From assembly GCA_965199755.1 (NCBI GenBank), contig CBDASZ010000001.1:326178-390177 (forward strand): a stretch of 64,000 bases of DNA, written 5' to 3'. This stretch comes from an uncultured candidatus Porisulfidus sp. GTDB taxonomy: Bacteria; Pseudomonadota; Gammaproteobacteria; Poriferisulfidales; Poriferisulfidaceae. Shown piece by piece: positions 2,269 through 12,280 of the stretch. Below the pieces are notes generated by a model. That model worked only from the letters and a program-made list of their open reading frames with translations. It was not told where the DNA came from and did not search any database. Position 1 is the stretch's first letter, and every line of letters starts with the position of its first letter. The position numbers and the translations under genes are program-made.

Positions 2269-3065
2269 GAGTCAAAAGAGCAGGTGCGGTAGTCAGGAAT
2301 CCACAGCGGCTGCGGAATGTTGTATTCCGAAGGATAGTGTACGCGCACCAGATACAAACCATCGGGAGGTGCCGTGACACCGCCGGCGGTGCGGTCGCGC
2401 GCGTGCAGTAATTCGCTGATCCATTTTATCGGTTGCTGGCCATCACCGACGCACATCAGCGAGCCAACCAGAATGCGAACCATGTTGTGCAGGAAGCTGT
2501 CGGCTTCCACATCCAGGTGCACAAATGGGCCATGCGCCGCGATATTGAGGCGGTGCAGGGTGCGTGTGGGATTCTTGGCCTGACATCCGGCGGCACGAAA
2601 ACTGCTGAAATCATGCGTGCCGAGAAGGGCTTGCGCGGCCTCTTGCATGCGCGCGGCGTCAAGTGTCTTTGGGGTGCGGCTGACGCGGTGGGTCAGCAGG
2701 CCGGGAGCGCTGCGGCGCTGCAGCAGGATATACCGGTAGTGGCGTCTGATCGCCGTGTGGCGGGCATGAAAACTGTCTGGCACGGGCTGCACCCAGCCAA
2801 TACTGATGGTCGGGGGGAGGTGCGACCCAGCCCCGCGCTGCCAAGCGTGTGGCGTGCGTTCAACTTCGGTGTCGAAATGAATGACTTGACCGGTCGCGTG
2901 CACACCGCTGTCGGTACGGCCGGCCGTGGTGATCTGAATGGGTTGATACGCGACTGCGGAGAATGCGGTTTCTACCGCGTCCTGAATGCTGGGCGCATGA
3001 GTTTGGCGCTGCCAGCCACTGAAGGCGGAGCCGTCGTATTCAACGCCACAGGCAAAGCGCGTCAT
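2265..3065 (-). CDS. truA: tRNA pseudouridine(38-40) synthase
   Basis: MTRFACGVEYDGSAFSGWQRQ...TAGRTDSGVHATGQVIHFD; conserved TruA N-terminus and catalytic Asp region. Confidence 0.85.
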   Translation of the reverse strand: MTRFACGVEYDGSAFSGWQRQTHAPSIQDAVETAFSAVAYQPIQITTAGRTDSGVHATGQVIHFDTEVERTPHAWQRGAGSHLPPTISIGWVQPVPDSFHARHTAIRRHYRYILLQRRSAPGLLTHRVSRTPKTLDAARMQEAAQALLGTHDFSSFRAAGCQAKNPTRTLHRLNIAAHGPFVHLDVEADSFLHNMVRILVGSLMCVGDGQQPIKWISELLHARDRTAGGVTAPPDGLYLVRVHYPSEYNIPQPLWIPDYRTCSFDS

Positions 3066-3225
3066 GGTGTGGGTAATGGGGCAAGGTGTGTGGTGCCGGG
3101 ACTGAGCAGGCTTTTCATGGGGCAGTCTTGAGATTTAATAGAAACTATACCAGCATGTATCTGGCATTAAGCACGGAGGTGTCGGGATCAAGACTGGGTG
3201 TATTTGAATGGGACTTATATACATA

Positions 3226-3255
3226 ACTTGACAGAGCCTTGAAATGCTATACAAA
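3226..3255 (+). promoter_or_regulatory. candidate sigma70 promoter (TTGACA ... TATACA) for plus-strand porin copy
   Basis: TTGACA at 3226-3231 and TATACA about 14-16 nt downstream, in the A+T-rich intergenic region between truA and the porin gene. It overlaps the table ATG at 3239, which argues the real start is the downstream in-frame GTG at ~3267. Confidence 0.3.
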
Positions 3256-3266
3256 GCCTGAACAGG

Positions 3267-4787
3267 TGATTTTGATTTGTAAGATACAATTTCTAATTGC
3301 TTTGGCGGTCGCGGTCGCTCCGTTGGCAGCCCAGGCAGAGACCATCAACCTCTACGGCTGGCAAAACCATTCGTGGGAGTTTGTGGATATTGATGGTGGA
3401 CGCAGCTTTGATCGCATTCAGTCGAATGCTGGGCAACATCGGCTTCAGCCGCCAGTGTCGACACCGGCATGAACGGCATCAAGGTCAACTTGCAGTGCGA
3501 GCAGTTCACGTTCTACAACCGCTTACAACCACTTCGCGGGCGGCACCGGCTGGTGCAACCGTAACTCGAAGATCGGTCTGGCTCACCCGCAGATGGGTGA
3601 GATCATGTTCGCCACCTGGCTGCTGCCCTACAACGAAGGCGTAGCGCAGTGGGTTGACCCGTTCTACGATGCCGGCGCGGACTCGCATACCAGCATCATG
3701 GGTTCCGTAGGGCCAACACCATCTTCTATAACAGGTTCTGGTCAGCAGCCTCCGCCTCATCTACAACAGGTTTGATGGTTCCGGACAATAGTTTTTGAGA
3801 GGATTTCCTGCACTACGAGCACTGGCTTCAATCGTCGCCAGGAGAACATCATTCAGTACTGGTCACCGAACTGGAACGGTTTTGTGTTCCGGTTTGCGTG
3901 GACGGTCGGCACCCGGGATGAAACAGCCGCACCGGTCGGTGGTGGTGAAATCGACCCAGTAATTCGTTCCAGCAGTCTGGCCTACACCAATGGCCCCATG
4001 TGGCTGGCCGTCACGTGGCAGGATCACGAAGACTGGACTGCAGCTTCAGTCGGTGAGATGGCTTCTTCGGATGCTGAAAGCTGGCGTCTTGCCGGTCGCT
4101 ACATTGCCGATCTCGGTGATGGCATGAGCGTTCAGATCTCGGCCATGTACGAAGATCTCGAATATGAGTTCAATGGAGTCAGCAACTTTGATGCTGCTAT
4201 GGGTGCTTTCGGATATGGCAATTCGATGAGCTATACCGGCATTAGCCCATCTTCTCGTGCCGATGTCTTTCGTACTCAGCGTACAGGAAGTGGTTCCTCG
4301 AACTATTGTCTGGTGCCGATCGGTCTACTTGTGAGGGACACAGAGATTGCGGCAACGACATGGCGAAACAAAAACTGGAGTATGAACACCAGGTACTGAG
4401 GCTGGCATGGCAAAGTTGTATCGCTGGCACGTCGCAATCATGCGACCGCAGGCAGCAATGTAACGGTCGAACGCGAGGCCTGGATGATTTCCGGCAAGAT
4501 CAAGTTCGGCGGTCCGGTTGACTTCCGCTTCTCCTATATGGACGCGGATGATCTGGAGGTTTCCTGCAGCGTTTGCTCAGGCGACTGGGATAACACTGCT
4601 GCCGATGCGTGGAACGTAGGCATGTTCTACACCATGCCGGCCGGTACGGAACTGCGTCTGACCTATTCCGAAGTCGACAACGACGCAAACGGAACCTATG
4701 GTCAGGGTATTTCCGGCACGGGGCTTGGCTCAGCGCGGAGGTGAAGTTGAAATGTTCGCACTCGGTATCGTGCACTGGTTCGACTAA
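3267..4787 (+). pseudogene. outer-membrane porin (Gram-negative general porin-like), expressed-type copy with signal peptide, reading frame interrupted several times
   Basis: Signal peptide (M)ILICKIQFLIALAVAVAPLAAQA|ETINLYGWQNHSWEFVDIDGG (AQA cleavage site, TxNLYG porin N-terminus). C-terminus ...EVEMFALGIVHWFD*. Coding signal is spread over >=4 frames: 3267-3472, ~3440-3562, 3593-3775, 3776-4744 (one in-frame TGA at 4397-4399), 4740-4787. Cannot distinguish real decay from assembly errors in a repeat. Confidence 0.5.
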
Positions 4788-4820
4788 TCCGATTAGTTGA
4801 TCTATAACCGGCATACAAGA

Positions 4821-4848
4821 CAGGCGCCCTTCGGGGCGCCTGTTTTTT
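4821..4848 (+). terminator. rho-independent terminator (aggcgccc-ttcg-gggcgcct + T6)
   Basis: Perfect 8-bp GC-rich stem with tetraloop followed by TTTTTT, directly after the plus-strand porin stop. Confidence 0.7.
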
Positions 4849-5057
4849 ATGAGTTCGCTTGCTGATACCTTGGTACGAGCAGCACATATTTAAGATCAGA
4901 ATATACGTTTGAATTGCAACAAGAAGGGGACAATTCCTTTTTTACTGCCTGTGCGGACTTCTTGAAAGAGAAGGGCCTATTTCTCCGCGCGAGCAGATAT
5001 TTCTCAATAGCACAATTTTATGAGGTCTGAGCGTGTTCACCAATACGCTTGAACAAC

Positions 5058-5085
5058 AAAAAACAGGCGCCCCGAAGGGCGCCTG
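5058..5085 (-). terminator. rho-independent terminator, mirror image of the 4821-4848 hairpin
   Basis: A6 + aggcgccc-cgaa-gggcgcct on the plus strand is a T-run hairpin terminator on the minus strand, directly after the minus-strand porin copy stop. Flanking bases ataaccggc..acaagacagg are also conserved in inverted orientation. Confidence 0.7.
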
Positions 5086-5115
5086 TCTTGTTAAGCCGGT
5101 TATTGATTGATGCAA

Positions 5116-6547
5116 TCAATCGAACCAGTGCACGATGCCGAGAGCAAACATCTCAACCTTTAACACCTGCAGTACCCAGACCCGTACCGGAAACACCCTG
5201 ACCGTAGGTTCCGTTTGCGTCGTTGTCAACTTCGGAATAGGTCAGACGCAGTTCCGTACCCGCCGGCATGGTGTAGAACATGCCTACATTCCACGCATCG
5301 GCAGCAGTGTTATCCCAGTCGCCTGAGCACGCGCTGCAGGAAACCTCCAAATCATCCGCATCCATATAGGAGAAGCGGAAGTCAACCGGACCGCCGAACT
5401 TGATCTTGCCGGAAATCATCCAGGCCTCGCGTTCGACCGTTACATTGCTGCCTGCGGTCGCATGATTGCGACGTGTAGCGTGTTCTCCGTTTTGAGCCGC
5501 CATCATATTCTTGAACTCAGTCTTTTGTTTCGCCATGGGGTTGCCGCAAAGTGCATCATCAGGTAGATCCTTCGGCACCAGACAACCCGTTTTGCCACTT
5601 ATTGCTATGCGATAGTCGTAACTGGAACTTGAATCGTCGCTAACGCTGTCATAGCTCATCGAATTGCCATATCCGAAAGCACCCATCGCGGCATCAAAGT
5701 TGCTGACTCCATTGAACTCATACTCAAGATCTTCGTACATGGCCGAGATCTGAACGCTCATGCCATCACCGAGGTCGGCAATGTAGCGACCGGCAAGACG
5801 CCAGCTTTCAGCATCAGAAGAAGCCATCTCACCGACTGAAGCTGCAGTCCAGTCTTCGTGATCCTGCCACGTGACGGCCATCCACATGCGGGCCATTGGT
5901 GTAGGCCAGACTGCTGGAACGAATTACTGGGTCGATTTCACCATCACCGACCGGCTGTTTGAAACTTTCGTTTCGTCCCGGATAGCCGGGCGTCCAAGCA
6001 AACCGGAACACAAAACCGTTCCAGTTTGGTGACCAGTACTGAATGATGTTCTCCTGGCGACGGTTGATAACTGCCGCTTGTGCCTCTCGCGAATCCCGGA
6101 TTGTAGTAGGCTTGACCAGAACCTGCGCCCACGCCTCCCATGATGCTGGTATGCGAGTCTGCACCGGCATCATAGAACGGGTCAACCCACTGCGCTACGC
6201 CTTCGTTGTAGGGCAGCAGCCAGGTGGCGAACATGAATTCACCCATCTGTGGATGAGCCAAACCGATCTTGGAGTTACGGTTGCACCAGCCGTGTTGCCG
6301 CCCGCGAAATCCGTGAAGCGGTTGTAGAAGGTGAACTGCTCGCACTGCAAGTTGACCTTGATGCCGTTCATGCCGGTGTCCATGCTGGCGGCTGAAGCCG
6401 ATGTTGCCCAGCATTCGACTGAATGCGGTCAAAGCTGCGTCCACCATCAACATCGACAAACTCCCACGAATGGTTTTGCCAGCCGTAGAGGTTGATGGTC
6501 TCTGCCTGGGCTGCCAACGGAGCGACCGCGACCGCCAAAGCAATTAG
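5116..6547 (-). pseudogene. second, inverted paralogous copy of the porin gene; 5' end (promoter + signal peptide) absent; frame interrupted several times
   Basis: Reverse complement of 5116-6547 aligns with 3288-4787. Identical blocks include ...LIALAVAVAPLAAQAETINLYGWQNHSWEFVD..., ...QYWSPNWNGFVFRFAWT..., ...AVTWQDHEDWTAASVGEMASSDAESWRLAGRYIADLGDGMSVQISAMYEDLEYEFNGVSNFDAAMGAFGYGNSMSY..., ...EMFALGIVHWFD*. Homology ends at 6547, where the upstream sequence diverges and has an in-frame TGA and no start or signal peptide. Pieces lie in ORFs 5153..5896, 5829..6185, 5944..6543, 6195..6383. Confidence 0.5.
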
Positions 6548-6638
6548 AAATCCGCTTCTACCTGCAACCAGAACCTGCTCAAAACTGGCCCATCATCCCT
6601 GTCGCAATTTGACTTTTCGAGACTGCAAGAATTGAGAA

Positions 6639-8307: not shown

Positions 8308-8402
8308 GGCTATTCCAGCGTACCCGTGGTTGTATGTAGGATAATGACACCCGGGTTTCGCGCCGTTTGCCGATTTCCTCCCTAATACCCTCACTGAACA
8401 CC

Positions 8403-9266
8403 ATGAAGAACCTGCTGATCTACCTCGATACGGACGCGCAGCCGTCCGCGTTTGATCAGGTTGTCGCCCATGACGCCGGCGCCGACGCGGTGTTGGCTTA
8501 TGGCTCAGTGACCCCGGAAAACTGCTTCCCTCTGGTCGAAGGCGCGATCTACACCCGTGCGCCCAAACACAAGCACCATACCGCTATTCTGGTCGGCGGC
8601 AGCAATCTGGACCACGCGCAAGCCGTGGAGGATGCCGTGCGCGGTCAGTTTTTTGCTGACTTTCGCGTGTCGGTCGGACTTGACGCCAATGGGTGCAATA
8701 CCACCGCGGCGGCCGCCGTCGCCACGCTGGGAGGGGCGCATCCGCTCAAGGGATCCCGCGTGGTGGTGCTGGCGGGCACCGGTCCGGTGGGACAACGCGC
8801 AGCGCTACTGTTCGCCCAAGCCGGAGCCAAGGTGTACTTAAGCTCACGCAAACTGGAGCGGGCCGAACAGGCGTGTGACGCCATCGAGCACCGTTTTGGG
8901 GCTTCCGTGTTTCCGGTTGCGGCGTCAACTGCCGACAGCACAGCCGATGCCATTGAAGGCGCGGCGGTGGTTTTGGCAACCGGTCAGACGGGCGTACAAC
9001 TCTTGCCCGGAACCGTTCGTGTGAACAGTTCCGCGTTGCGCGTGGTTGGAGACGCCGGCACCTGTCCGCCTCTGGGAGTGGAAGGGCTGCAACTCCAAGA
9101 CAAGGGGCGAGAGGATGAAGGGGTGTTGCTGTATGGCGGACTCACCATCGGTGCGCTCAAACTGCACACGCAACGTGAAATGATCGCGCGACTATTCGCA
9201 CGCAATGATCAGTTCTGGGACGCCCCGGAAATCTTCGCGCTCGCCCAAACTCTATACAACGCCTAG
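8403..9266 (+). CDS. mtdA: NAD(P)-dependent methylene-tetrahydromethanopterin (H4MPT/H4F) dehydrogenase, MtdA/MtdB family
   Basis: MKNLLIYLDTDAQPSAFDQVVAHDAGADAVLAYGSVTPEN...GAIYTRAPKHKHHTAILVGGSNL...FRVSVGLDANGCNTTAAAAVA...VVVLAGTGPVGQRAALLFAQAGAKVYLSSRKLERA matches my memory of Methylobacterium MtdA along the full length (~288 aa). Start chosen at MKNLL (8403) rather than table ATG 8367. Confidence 0.75.
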   Translation: MKNLLIYLDTDAQPSAFDQVVAHDAGADAVLAYGSVTPENCFPLVEGAIYTRAPKHKHHTAILVGGSNLDHAQAVEDAVRGQFFADFRVSVGLDANGCNTTAAAAVATLGGAHPLKGSRVVVLAGTGPVGQRAALLFAQAGAKVYLSSRKLERAEQACDAIEHRFGASVFPVAASTADSTADAIEGAAVVLATGQTGVQLLPGTVRVNSSALRVVGDAGTCPPLGVEGLQLQDKGREDEGVLLYGGLTIGALKLHTQREMIARLFARNDQFWDAPEIFALAQTLYNA

Positions 9267-9307: not shown

Positions 9308-9976
9308 TCACAGGCGTTCGCGCAGGGCTAACTCCGCGTCAATGTTCTCAATGCGCGTCTGCAATTCCGCCATGCGATAACTTTCCGTCAACGCATCGCG
9401 CGCCTGCTCGACCACCGCGTAATGCTGCTGCAGCGCCAGTGTGTATTGGCCCAACAGCGTATCCGGGTCTTTCTGGTCTTGCTGCATGCGGTCCCGAATG
9501 TCCTCGTTTTCGCGCAGCGTGTTCATCACCACCACATAACTGACACCCAGCCGAAAATCGTACGGTTTGTAACTTTGCAAGGTGGTGATATTCGGGCGCA
9601 ACTCTTCGATGATTCCAGACAGGGTCGCACGAAAGTTCATCATGTCTTCCGCCAGTTCCGCATCGATCTCGTACAGATCAATGAATTGCGGGATCAACTC
9701 CAAAATCCGTACGCGCTCTTCATCGTACTCCAGCAATGCCTGCAGCAACTGCGCTTCCATTTTTTCCGGCGGAGCCGGATTTTCGTCCGGCACCTGACCG
9801 GCATACACCGCCCGGTGCTGTTTCAGTTCCGTGGTGTTCAGTTCCTTCAGCGATCCCATCGACGGGAGCTGAGGCACATCAATCATCGGATGCACCGGTT
9901 CGCTCTCCGCAAGTAGCGGTGTTCCGTAAACTGCCAGCACTGCACTCAGCAAGGCGGCAGACACATGGGGTCGCAT
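9308..9976 (-). CDS. hypothetical secreted protein (signal peptide + acidic coiled-coil-rich region)
   Basis: Internal start MRPHVSAALLSAVLAVYGTPLLAESEP (signal peptide) preferred over the table start at 10222. Remainder is acidic/helical (EEL..LEYDEERVRILELIPQFIDLYEIDAELAEDMM). No family recognised. Confidence 0.45.
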   Translation of the reverse strand: MRPHVSAALLSAVLAVYGTPLLAESEPVHPMIDVPQLPSMGSLKELNTTELKQHRAVYAGQVPDENPAPPEKMEAQLLQALLEYDEERVRILELIPQFIDLYEIDAELAEDMMNFRATLSGIIEELRPNITTLQSYKPYDFRLGVSYVVVMNTLRENEDIRDRMQQDQKDPDTLLGQYTLALQQHYAVVEQARDALTESYRMAELQTRIENIDAELALRERL

Positions 9977-10276
9977 GATTTGGGTACCGGAAAAATATGC
10001 AGGCAGTATACCGGAATCCGCCATCCCTCCACAACGAGCCTCCCGCCGCATCCTGCATTCCCGACAGTCGACCGCTCTCGCAGCAATCCACCCCAAATAC
10101 CCCGACACAAAAAATTCCCCATATATTTCAAAATGCAAGACACTCATTCTGCGCAATTTCCAGCCGCCTCCACACGCCTCACAAACCGTCGCACTTGCAA
10201 TATGCCAAGCGAACAGGAACAATAAGCACCTGAATCCCGCGTGTTCGCCCGCGACTCTGTCTCGAAACCACGGCCG

Positions 10277-12280
10277 ATGCCCACCCAGCGAATGCTAGCC
10301 AACGCCATCCGGGCGTTGAGCATGGATGCCGTGGAACAGGCCGCATCAGGCCATCCGGGCATGCCTATGGGTATGGCGGACATCGCCGAGGTGCTGTGGC
10401 GTCGCCATCTGCGGCACAACCCCAACGATCCCAGCTGGCCCAACCGCGACCGCTTCGTGGTCTCCAACGGCCACGGCTCCATGCTGCTCTACAGCGCGCT
10501 GTATTTGAGCGGCTACCCGCTGTCGCTGGACGATCTTCGCGCCTTCCGCCAACTTCACTCAAAGACTCCGGGACACCCGGAACGGGACCCGGAGATCGGC
10601 ATTGAGACCACCACCGGCCCGCTCGGCCAAGGCCTGGCCAACGCCGTCGGCATGGCGCTCGCCGAGAAGTTGCTCGCGCAGCGCTACAACCGCCCCGACT
10701 ACCCGGTTATTGATCATCACACCTACGTGTTCGCAGGCGACGGCTGCCTGATGGAAGGCGTTTCGCACGAAGCCTGCAGTCTGGCCGGAACGTTGGAACT
10801 CGGCAAACTCATCGTGTTCTATGACGACAACGGCATTTCCATTGACGGCTCCACGCAAGGATGGTTCACGGACGACACCCCCGGGCGTTTTCGCGCGTAT
10901 GGCTGGCAGGTGCTGCCGGAAGTCGACGGACACGATGCTGAGGCGGTGGACGCTGCGATTGAGACCGCCAAAGCGGATTCGCGGCCGTCACTGATTTGCT
11001 GTCGCACAGTGATCGGTTACGGTGCGCCCAACAAGCAAGGCACTGCGGACACGCATGGTGCTCCACTAGGCGCAGACGAGATCCAGCAAGCCCGTGAAGC
11101 GCTTCAATGGCCGCATCCGCCGTTTGAAATTCCCCAGGACATCCTTGATGCCTGGGACGCCCGCACACGCGGTGCACAACGCGCCGAACAATGGCAGGAT
11201 CTCATGGAAGCCTACGCCGCGGACCATCCGCAGGATGCGCAGGAGTTGATGCGGCGCCTCAACGGACGATTGCCCGAGGCGTTCTCACGCGCCGTTGACA
11301 AACATATTCAAAGCCAGTTGAAAGAACCGGCGCGTGCCGCCACCCGCAAGCACTCTGGCAATACGCTTGACGCGATTGCCGAAAGTCTGCCGGAACTGCT
11401 TGGCGGATCCGCGGATCTGACCGGCTCCAACAACACGCAGCCGAAAGGCTCCAGCACCATCACCGCGCAAGAACCTGGCAACTACCTGTACTACGGCGTG
11501 CGGGAGTTCGGCATGGGCGCGATCATGAACGGACTGGCTTTGCACGGCGGTGTGATTCCGTACGGCGGCACCTTTCTGACTTTTTCAGACTACGCGCGCA
11601 ATGCTGTTCGTATGGCGGCTTTGATGCGGCTGCATGTGATCTTTGTGCTCACCCACGATTCCGTCGGTCTGGGCGAGGATGGCCCGACCCACCAGCCGAT
11701 TGAACATCTCGACAGCCTGCGGCTGATCCCCGATCTCGAAGTGTGGCGTCCCGCCGACGCGATCGAAGCCGCGGTTGCCTGGAAATGCGCGTTGCAGAAC
11801 CAGCAACAGCCCAGCGCCATGGTGCTGTCTCGCCAGACCGTGGAGGTGCTGCAGCACAGCACGCAAACAGTCGCGTTGATCGCACGAGGTGGTTATGTGT
11901 TGCAAGACTGCGACGGGACACCGGATCTCATCCTGATGTCCACCGGCTCGGAACTGGGTCTTGCGGTACAGTGTGCGCAAGCCTTGGCCGATCACAACGT
12001 GCGCGTGGTGTCCGTCCCGTGCATGGAGCGTTTCGCCCGGCAGGAACTCGCCTATATCGAAGAGGTGCTGCCCCCTGAAGTTCGCATACGGATCGCGGTG
12101 GAGGCCGGCACCGGGGTGTGCTGGCAACGCTGGCTTGGTGAGCAGGGACGCCTTTTGGGCATTACAGAATTTGGCCATTCCGCGCCAGGGGCGTGTGTAA
12201 TGGAACACTTTGGCATGACTGCAGATAACCTAACTCGAATGGCCCGCGAACTACTGGGCCGGGAGCAAGCACACACATGA
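10277..12280 (+). CDS. tkt: transketolase
   Basis: [41 protein letters not shown]... (TPP-binding GHPG motif); 668 aa; start of tkt-gap-pgk-pyk-fba cluster. Confidence 0.9.

Follow-up and report, generated by a model that had tools for sequence, protein, structure and literature searches.

In a sponge symbiont resembling Candidatus Porisulfidus, two porin genes lie tail to tail between truA and phr in the window, i.e. the whole 64-kb stretch of DNA analysed, one on each strand (Table 1), and no third porin copy was found in these 64 kb. The blocks coding for the barrel are 92-98% identical between copies A and B, and the loop blocks are unrelated. The alike blocks form six pairs of inverted repeat arms of 65-301 nt with 92-98% complementarity, in agreement with an earlier note on this DNA that had recognised inverted porin paralogs with near-identical blocks. 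The note had also assigned the same hairpin terminator to both copies, and the two hairpins are indeed a perfect mirror of 34 nt (100% complementary); its A+T-rich spacer, given as 207 bp, was found with a slightly different length. A search for RNA families in the spacer and untranslated regions returned sub-threshold matches only, driven by the terminator hairpins, and a structured RNA was therefore dropped as a candidate. Copy A, with a TTG start at 3272 and a TAA stop at 4785-4787, is the ortholog of the gene for P0001, an intact protein of 499 aa encoded in the related sequence L001 (ENA ERZ25068043).

Table 1. Features of the convergent porin pair, in coordinates of the window
Feature	Position	Strand	Remarks
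Porin copy A, Porin_4 family	3272-4787	+	tblastn with P0001 matches 3272-4784; alignment to L001 gene; three-frame translation
Porin copy B, full-length paralog	5116-6571	-	stop TGA 5118-5116
Inverted repeat arm pair	3289-3524/6316-6551		
Inverted repeat arm pair	3547-3711/6128-6292		
Inverted repeat arm pair	3828-3910/5985-6067		
Inverted repeat arm pair	3932-3996/5890-5954		
Inverted repeat arm pair	3994-4246/5639-5891		
Inverted repeat arm pair	4428-4728/5175-5475		
Two +1 insertions 16 nt apart, highly conserved strand	3430-3447	+	GCTGG[G]C, TTC[A]GCC
10-nt tandem near-duplicate ACAACCGCTT-ACAACCACTT	3515-3534	+	direct sequence reading, alignments
Variable block, loop L3, copy A	3711-3827	+	resembles L001 allele; 13 small indel events, at least six frame changes in ~120 nt
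Small variable block, loop L4, copy A	3911-3931	+	counterpart in copy B 5955-5984
Variable block, long loop L6, copy A	4247-4427	+	at least three frame changes
3' end and 3' UTR, copy A	4715-4814	+	type of L001's P0002; one extra base ~4735
Hairpin terminator, copy A	4815-4848	+	GGCGCCC-TTCG-GGGCGCC then T6
A+T-rich spacer between terminators	4849-5057	.	209 nt, 42.6% GC vs 58.4% for whole window
Hairpin terminator, copy B	5058-5091	-	exact mirror of that of copy A; terminator-like site 5089-5060
3' end, copy B	5215-5092	-	type of L001's P0001; one extra G ~5158

P0001 scored 75.5 bits against the Pfam family Porin_4 (PF13609; cut-off 27), and the same family was found, among the matches listed, in nearly all of 120 homologs. 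The isolated ORF fragments of the window gave no Pfam match on their own. An AlphaFold2 model of P0001, of medium confidence (pTM 0.63) and with the loops unmodelled, predicts 16 strands joined by short periplasmic turns and long extracellular loops. The best Foldseek matches for the model were 2fgq, 1e54, 5mdo and 3a2s (E 1e-13 to 1e-14, TM ~0.7 on the target), representing Omp32, VhChiP, PorB and OmpF. Judged by sequence and model, the pair consists of general porin genes of the Porin_4 family with a predicted 16-strand barrel, and it is the family match and the predicted barrel that make up the likeness to general trimeric porins. The solved general porins (Omp32 of Delftia acidovorans, Neisseria PorB, Vibrio VhChiP and OmpF) have about 330-350 aa, whereas members of this family have 420-794 aa with a much longer L3 and L6. 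In contrast to the solved porins, this family also counts 5-8 or more paralogs per genome of about 2 Mb, and its C-terminus reads ...HWFD where those proteins end in a terminal aromatic residue. A limited literature search returned nothing on these porins.

The variable blocks map to predicted extracellular loops L2, L3, L4, L6 and L8 of the barrel, and the hypervariable segments are bounded by blocks conserved in the pair, which are possible recombination anchors. The counterpart of L3 in copy B (6068-6127) is shorter and in frame, and that of L6 (5476-5638) is unrelated in sequence and also in frame. The L4 block of copy B is 9 nt longer, so that the difference between the copies is in frame there. 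The replacement of surface loops by unrelated internal blocks, as proposed before, is thus borne out for 3712-3827 versus 6068-6127, for 4247-4427 versus 5476-5638 and for smaller blocks. When copy A was painted with k-mers (k=9), most of L3 and L6 proved neither L001-like nor copy-B-like, so a plain two-allele consensus of known alleles fails to explain the loops of copy A and was rejected. A fine-scale mosaic of copy A, with 38 switches between L001-like and copy-B-like states over 99 sites, was also dropped as evidence, since in a comparison of three sequences any variable site necessarily falls on one of the three branches.

Copy B had been described as 5'-truncated at the mature N-terminus. 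This proved incorrect, as homology runs on through the signal peptide, whose core FLIALAVAVAPLAAQA the two copies share without any difference (3289-3336 = 6551-6504), and a weaker similarity extends about 45 nt further upstream. The hydrophobic core and AQA cleavage site of copy A are kept in copy B, and the latter can hardly be called a truncated cassette, being of full length with its own loop set, terminator and signal-peptide core. Lack of a usable start codon in one copy is supported, for copy B. A CTG (6571-6569) stands at the position of copy A's TTG, no ATG, GTG or TTG occurs upstream of the 12-residue remnant MALAVAPFAAQA, and from the first canonical in-frame start (TTG at 6538) it is only 12 codons to the cleavage site of the signal peptide, leaving no canonical start that yields a signal peptide of at least 15 aa. 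Copy A may begin at the TTG (3272), which has poor Shine-Dalgarno (SD) spacing, or at a GTG, followed by ...KIQFLIALAVAVAPLAAQA|ET. The promoter claimed for this copy was not upheld; the spacing between TTGACA (3228-3233) and TATACA (3248-3253) is only 14 nt, and a consensus scan upstream of both copies gave no sigma-70-like site. The combination of SD and ATG, which is the standard start in the family, is absent from both window copies.

As given, neither copy has one continuous open reading frame. Three-frame translation and alignments confirmed that both are split over several frames, with at least 13 frame changes in copy A and six in copy B, all caused by small indels and those of copy B by single bases. 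Neither copy contains a nonsense substitution, and there are no large deletions in the two. Both +1 insertions of the highly conserved strand are also present in copy B (6410-6393; 3430-3433 pairs with 6407-6410 and 3447 with 6393) and in no homolog whose alignment covered the segment. Of the junctions previously thought to be shared by the copies this one stands; the C-terminal breaks do not, being separate +1 events at ~4735 and ~5158. The first unit of the tandem near-duplicate is of copy-B type and the second of L001 type; with the two +1 insertions, the duplicate brings copy A back into frame (1 + 1 + 10 = 12 extra bases), but not before an in-frame TGA at 3470-3472. A copy-specific insertion of one nucleotide, formerly placed at 5895, corresponds to an extra G of copy B at about 5889 (CCC-CATG versus CCCGCATG). 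The indels of copy A are concentrated in allele-specific sequence (13 events in 3711-3819), and three long conserved blocks (3535-3710, 3828-4246 and 4428-4734) are free of them. Other indel sites of the pair are 4330-4430, ~6068 and ~6292. Single-base events in conserved sequence are mostly insertions; naturally arising indels in bacteria tend to be deletions. Programmed frameshifting and phase variation were both rejected, as the breaks are too many and no long repeat tract occurs at any of them.

At least six related genomes have convergent porin pairs, with ORFs that are nearly always intact; this is a standard arrangement of the lineage. Simple inverted paralogs, each with a single intact ORF, were the outcome that the earlier note had set against its own proposal, and this is the architecture that the relatives display. 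Ten convergent pairs, the one of the window included, are built in the same way: the copies are alike in their 5' blocks and in their 3' blocks, diverge in the L6 region and have mirrored 3' UTRs. The identity of the 5' block is 0.879 within genomes versus 0.684 between genomes, and the two porin genes of L001 are 98.6% identical without a gap over 970 nt. At the family level, gene conversion between paralogs has real support, as does the existence of a class of copies that lack a start and are nevertheless intact.

Substitutions in both copies are strongly biased towards synonymous changes. Compared with the intact ortholog, copy A has 31 synonymous to 11 non-synonymous differences (codon positions 6/3/33) and copy B has 46 to 13 (10/4/45), giving p values of 4e-11 and 2e-17, respectively, in a binomial test against an assumed synonymous expectation of 25%. 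The bias is present upstream and downstream of the frame breaks. Given these synonymous-biased substitutions, damage by indels only without nonsense substitutions, and conserved blocks free of indels, gradual decay of the pair is unlikely, and the decaying duplicated porin locus suggested earlier is not supported. A recent inactivation of both copies as real pseudogenes, the indels of one having partly been copied to the other by gene conversion, is a possible explanation of distinctly lower probability than a sequence error. Such an origin could account for the two +1 insertions common to both copies, and the homogenisation within genomes noted above is consistent with it. Neither copy has a standard translation start, which would mean that they were already unexpressed and that lesions were not removed by selection; single frame breaks also occur in relatives, although in only two homologs, one break each, among about 45 complete homologs from more than 15 related genomes. 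Against this, constraint shows no sign of relaxation, and at least 19 indel events in about 3 kb with essentially no neutral substitutions do not resemble a natural mutation spectrum. The crowding of frame changes into 120 nt of a single loop, with none in conserved blocks of 400 nt, is equally difficult to reconcile with pseudogenes. Furthermore, a strain with a 100% identical flank has an intact gene. Along some 900 nt of left flank, L001 and the window have 0 mismatches, and differences begin at 3430. Start-less copies of relatives have also been kept open, over 445-657 codons.

The broken frames are best regarded, with a probability somewhat above even, as an error of consensus or assembly, local to a locus that is repeated and varies between strains. 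We infer a technical origin of the indels and intact genes beneath them. Faulty sequence, in the form of a misassembled repeat, had been offered as an alternative before, and the indel-only damage confined to the pair favours it. The intact ortholog of L001, the rarity of frame breaks among homologs, the shared architecture of the ten convergent pairs, the clustering of indels in allele-specific sequence, the union of a copy-B-type with an L001-type unit in the near-duplicate, the two insertions found in no aligned homolog and the predominance of insertions point the same way. The remaining ~58 kb of the window have no frame changes and are tiled by open frames of at least 200 codons. In the 17 flanking genes that match a Pfam family, the match extends over essentially the whole model; an eighteenth ORF tested (9308-10222) had no family match. 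Generally low assembly quality was dropped as an explanation, since neighbouring ORFs, including suspiciously overlapping ones, are all full-length separate genes. Residual consensus errors are known from long-read and metagenome assemblies in repeated or strain-variable regions. The present case resembles them in its indel-only damage, its restriction to the repeated and variable locus and its clean unique flanks; it differs in that two insertions common to both copies would require either that the copies drew on one pool of reads or that the error depended on sequence context.

Under this reading of an assembly error, intragenomic recombination would keep the barrel-coding blocks of the copies alike. 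The loops, L3 and L6 above all, differ completely, so that each gene may offer a different exposed surface on the same pore. Errors would be limited to a single stretch, which is repeated (two copies here, with several others in the remainder of such genomes) and also varies between co-occurring strains or structural isomers; reads from different alleles or paralogs may have been piled together there, or a path may have been supported by too few reads. Some observations speak against such an artefact. The two identical insertions could be a real lesion spread by gene conversion, which is clearly at work in the family, and polishing should have succeeded in the unique loops of copy A, barring strain differences at these sites. 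As the assembly is clean elsewhere, a burst of errors needs a special local cause; in addition, both copies, lacking SD and ATG, might be unexpressed and free to decay.

Independent sequence of the pair was sought in several ways. Looking up the exact protein sequences of phr, truA, gap and two porin ORF fragments gave no match. The look-up of trpF returned two short Logan contigs, which match the window over 3.4 kb with zero gaps and one of which ends 28 nt inside the repeat. Logan contigs of the runs SRR33960550 and SRR33960552 match the truA-trpF flank at 99.8% and 100% identity, respectively. No contig found extends across the inner part of the pair. Peptides that span the junctions or are out of frame, used as queries for homologs, gave nothing near-identical, and exact-pattern scans of JGI metagenomes for a frameshift junction and the upstream region gave 0 hits each. 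The nearest photolyase, 77% identical, is on a contig without porins.

A usable start is missing from 28 of the 53 family 5' ends, ten of which carry TAG, TAA or TGA where expressed-type copies have ATG; SD and ATG are present in 12-15 copies. In L003 and L004, convergent pairs are present in which an expressed-type copy is combined with a start-less one. With about half of the paralogs start-less, a speculative model of expressed and silent copies stays in play, in which the pair would belong to a system of surface variation by recombination. The start-less copies would then be donors or swap partners of an expressed copy, exchanging sequence by gene conversion or by homologous inversion that swaps 3' bodies with their loops, and donors would not need one continuous frame. 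Such an origin of the window pair is improbable, although several features are in keeping with it, including the restriction of hypervariability to loops with conserved blocks on either side. The 3'-end types of the two copies are swapped relative to the two genes of L001, and a structural difference from L001, where asd-leuBDC follow the porin, begins at the porin terminator. However, the spacer matches neither downstream region of L001, and a simple inversion is thus not confirmed. The window holds no expressed-type copy and no recombinase gene within about 5 kb of the pair, and neither population variants nor a second orientation of the segment were observed. The start-less copies of relatives are intact and of full length, and each has a terminator; in this they depart from the truncated cassettes of known systems, which argues that the frame does matter. 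They might also be translated simply from an internal ATG or TTG.

In Helicobacter pylori, the paralogous outer-membrane proteins babA, babB and sabA are homogenised by gene conversion. This family resembles them in its conserved 5' and 3' segments, variable middle and greater similarity within than between genomes, and differs in consisting of classical porins in tail-to-tail pairs with mirrored terminators. The functional pseudogenes of Anaplasma msp2/p44 and the inversion of Campylobacter fetus sapA are systems of expression site and silent copies. Many start-less copies and conserved flanks around hypervariable segments are common to these and to the porins, and the inverted orientation of the homologs could support homologous inversion. 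In contrast to both systems, the copies here are of full length with their own terminators, and intact in relatives; they are also convergent, their 3' ends being adjacent rather than their 5' ends flanking a promoter.

For annotation, the practical consequence is that a local sequence error probably makes two porin genes appear as fragments of pseudogenes, and the locus is a place where the assembly deserves a check against reads. The abundant porin of the outer membrane is the main protein exposed by a symbiont living among phagocytic sponge cells. A multi-copy family that is hypervariable in its loops only, evolves in concert and includes many intact copies without a start is a candidate mechanism of surface variation. 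It is conceivable, albeit with a low probability, that only some porin copies of the family have a ribosome-binding site and ATG, and that exchange between conserved barrel blocks, through conversion or through inversion of the inner segment of a convergent pair, puts other loops behind the expressed start. The window pair would then be two archive copies, the messy consensus would reflect real heterogeneity at the locus, and the symbiont would gain a recombinational means of varying its exposed surface. The only phase-variable repeat tract shown is an A5/A6 difference in two relatives.

The inverted pair of porin paralogs with unrelated internal blocks described in the earlier note was recovered here as six inverted-repeat arms (65-301 nt, complementarity 92-98%), mirrored 34-nt hairpins and, alternating with the arms, dissimilar blocks of unequal length. 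The two genes, copy A and copy B, are reverse-complement paralogs (see table), and no further porin copy was found in the 64 kb by tblastn with an intact homolog as query. Between the terminator arms lies a 209-nt spacer with a GC content of 42.6%, compared with 58.4% for the whole window. The same design recurs in nine other convergent pairs of porin genes, drawn from at least six genomes, with identities of 0.81-1.00 in the 5' block and 0.87-0.98 in the 3' block, a divergent region of predicted loop L6, mirrored 3' UTRs and intergenic spacers of 349-632 nt. All but two of the approximately 45 complete homologs on the loci retrieved have a single frame; the two exceptions, in L010 and L022, contain one break each, inside the long L6 loop. 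The convergent-pair architecture is normal for this lineage, whereas the broken frames are abnormal.

Features of the porin pair, its surroundings and related loci (window positions unless a relative's contig is named)
Feature	Position	Detail
Copy A	3272-4787 (+)	porin gene
Copy B	5116-6571 (-)	porin paralog
Hairpin and T-run	4815-4848 and 5058-5091	34 nt, perfect mirror images, one at each gene end
Dissimilar block	3712-3827 (copy A), 6068-6127 (copy B)	
Dissimilar block	4247-4427 (copy A), 5476-5638 (copy B)	
Smaller dissimilar blocks	~3510-3546, 3911-3931, ~4729-4745	
Copy A frame changes	3430-3534	3 events
Copy A frame changes	3711-3827	at least 6
Copy A frame changes	4330-4430	at least 3
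Copy A frame change	~4735	1
Copy B frame changes	~6408, 6393, 6292, 6068, 5889, 5158	six, single-base each
Open frame antisense to truA	2433-3131 (+)	232 codons
Gene adjoining photolyase gene	8367-9266 (+)	methylene-tetrahydromethanopterin dehydrogenase N-terminal domain (Mpt_N); symbiont sulfur-oxidiser-like
ORF	9308-10222 (-)	304 aa, no Pfam matches
Porin genes of L001	784-2283 and 8026-9816	direct orientation, around asd-leuBDC
Shadow frame of L001	2-643 (+)	213 aa, antisense to truA; chosen by the gene caller over the truncated truA
Frame-broken homolog in L010	8311-10088 (-)	
Frame-broken homolog in L022	11244-13020 (+)	

With the stitched porin translation as query, hundreds of proteins were retrieved at E < 1e-180, nearly all of them PF13609 (Porin_4). 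The top match (Porin_4 score 75.5 bits) was P0001, the intact 499-aa porin of L001, a contig of the closest relative. Its AlphaFold2 model (pTM 0.63) is a 16-strand barrel with turns of 2-6 residues at one end and long loops at the other, and the Foldseek neighbours of the model are Omp32, VhChiP, PorB and OmpF (E ~1e-13, TM ~0.7 on the target). By profile and fold, copies A and B belong to the general porin family; on translation, neither is one continuous open frame in the sequence as given. All the variable blocks of the pair map to extracellular loops (L2, L3, L4, L6 and L8) if the usual porin topology is presupposed, and in an alignment of 32 family sequences the barrel is almost invariant and L6 hypervariable. 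Conserved flanks with variable exposed parts are likewise seen in other paralogous outer-membrane protein families. Homologs on genome contigs come mostly from MAGs named Candidatus Porisulfidus or unclassified Gammaproteobacteria/Chromatiales, and the complete chromosomes bearing them (1.6-2.0 Mb) carry several porin paralogs apiece. No recombinase gene was seen among the inspected genes flanking the pair, and a silent-cassette or invertible-switch system at this locus is a candidate reading only.

Both copies are indeed broken into several frames, with at least 13 frame changes in copy A and 6 in copy B; the C-terminal break previously thought common to both proved instead to be two separate events. 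Copy B has the same +1 insertions as copy A has at 3430-3433 and 3447, and they are absent from all homologs aligned over this segment. A 10-nt unit is present in two versions at 3515-3534, one matching copy B and the other L001, which gives the appearance of two alleles joined in tandem.

Comparison with L001 (ENA ERZ25068043, 9,998 bp) bears directly on the origin of these breaks. This contig shows no difference from the window over ~900 positions that start within truA and end 130 nt inside the porin gene, and beyond them it bears an intact ortholog of copy A. Its left flank is 100% identical, its layout departs from that of the window starting at the porin terminator, and its two porin genes diverge completely past their first 970 nt; the second of these genes is matched in type by the 3' end of copy A, and the first by that of copy B. 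Copy A differs from its ortholog by ~33 indel events in the coding sequence, all at or beyond 3430 (40 over the whole aligned stretch, including the 3' UTR and alignment end). These indels spare the long conserved blocks and cluster where the sequence is allele-specific; 13 of the events fall in 3711-3819. In clean alignment columns, synonymous and non-synonymous substitutions number 31:11 in copy A and 46:13 in copy B (p = 4e-11 and 2e-17 against an assumed synonymous expectation of 25%), third codon positions account for 33/42 and 45/59 substitutions, respectively, and no substitution creates a stop. The synonymous bias persists past the frame breaks; read in the homologous frame, the sequence there thus still looks like a gene on which purifying selection acts.

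At least 19 indels with no nonsense substitution and with constraint kept are not what mutation of an abandoned gene would be expected to leave, and on these grounds a local sequence error is favoured, with modest confidence, as the source of the broken frames. Reads of different alleles or paralogs may have been mixed, or depth may have been thin, with indel-prone consensus calling as the result. Long open frames tile the rest of the window, and 17 of the 18 genes tested with Pfam elsewhere in it, which include all suspicious overlaps, span their models approximately end to end (the exception is the ORF at 9308-10222). Two Logan contigs match the window across 3.4 kb with no gaps. Database searches for a second, independent sequence covering the inside of the pair found none. 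Less probably, the copies are real pseudogenes. The two shared insertions could have been spread by gene conversion, which, judging from the identity of 5' blocks within genomes (0.879) versus between genomes (0.684) and from the gap-free 98.6% identity of the two L001 porin genes over 970 nt before divergence, clearly operates in this family; moreover, both copies lack the family's standard start and might be unexpressed. The shared insertions would, however, be equally explained by an error specific to the sequence context, which is identical at the two sites, or by a shared pool of multi-mapped reads.

Copy B had been considered cut at the mature N-terminus, yet it matches copy A exactly in the putative signal-peptide core and cleavage site, with similarity reaching ~45 nt further upstream of the core. 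What copy B misses is a canonical start codon, having CTG at the TTG of copy A and GTT at its GTG. The TTGACA/TATACA promoter proposed for the plus copy was not confirmed: its elements are 14 nt apart, and a consensus scan of the sequence preceding each copy picked up no sigma-70-like site. Housekeeping genes flank the pair, namely trpB, trpF and truA next to copy A and a photolyase gene, an mtdB-like gene, tkt, gap and pgk beyond copy B. Copy B lies 67 nt (6572-6638) behind the photolyase gene, which has the same orientation, so that it might be transcribed by read-through.

Follow-up value lies more in the start-less copies across the family than in the window locus. Among 53 distinct porin 5' ends compared, AGGAG, ATG and MKKPFLIA occur together in 12-15, and 28 have no usable start, defined as an in-frame ATG, GTG or TTG yielding a signal peptide of 15 residues or more. 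In ten of these 28, the exact place of the ATG is taken by TAG, TAA or TGA, and seven start-less copies, mostly within these ten, are preceded by a conserved sequence of a different kind, in L008 a divergent intergenic region. That sequence (catcccggctggagcc...aaagTAG; L008 2290-2377, minus strand) has no Shine-Dalgarno motif, and the stop-at-ATG class is also found upstream of porin genes in L009, L013, L019, L020, L024 and L036. The complete start-less copies are open over 445-657 codons, with the frame-broken L022 copy (358 codons) as the sole exception. Tail-to-tail pairs of a start-less copy and an expressed-type copy (with Shine-Dalgarno and ATG) occur in L003 and L004. This family pattern would fit, without proving it, a division into expressed and silent copies that exchange sequence. 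Alternatively, the start-less copies might be translated from an internal ATG or TTG. In L005 (~6030-6045, +) and L004 (~11185-11200, +), AATGAAAAACCA with five A is found versus ATGAAAAAACCA with six A in expressed-type copies, and the five-A run puts the ATG out of frame; the difference may represent a homopolymer on/off switch or a homopolymer sequencing error.
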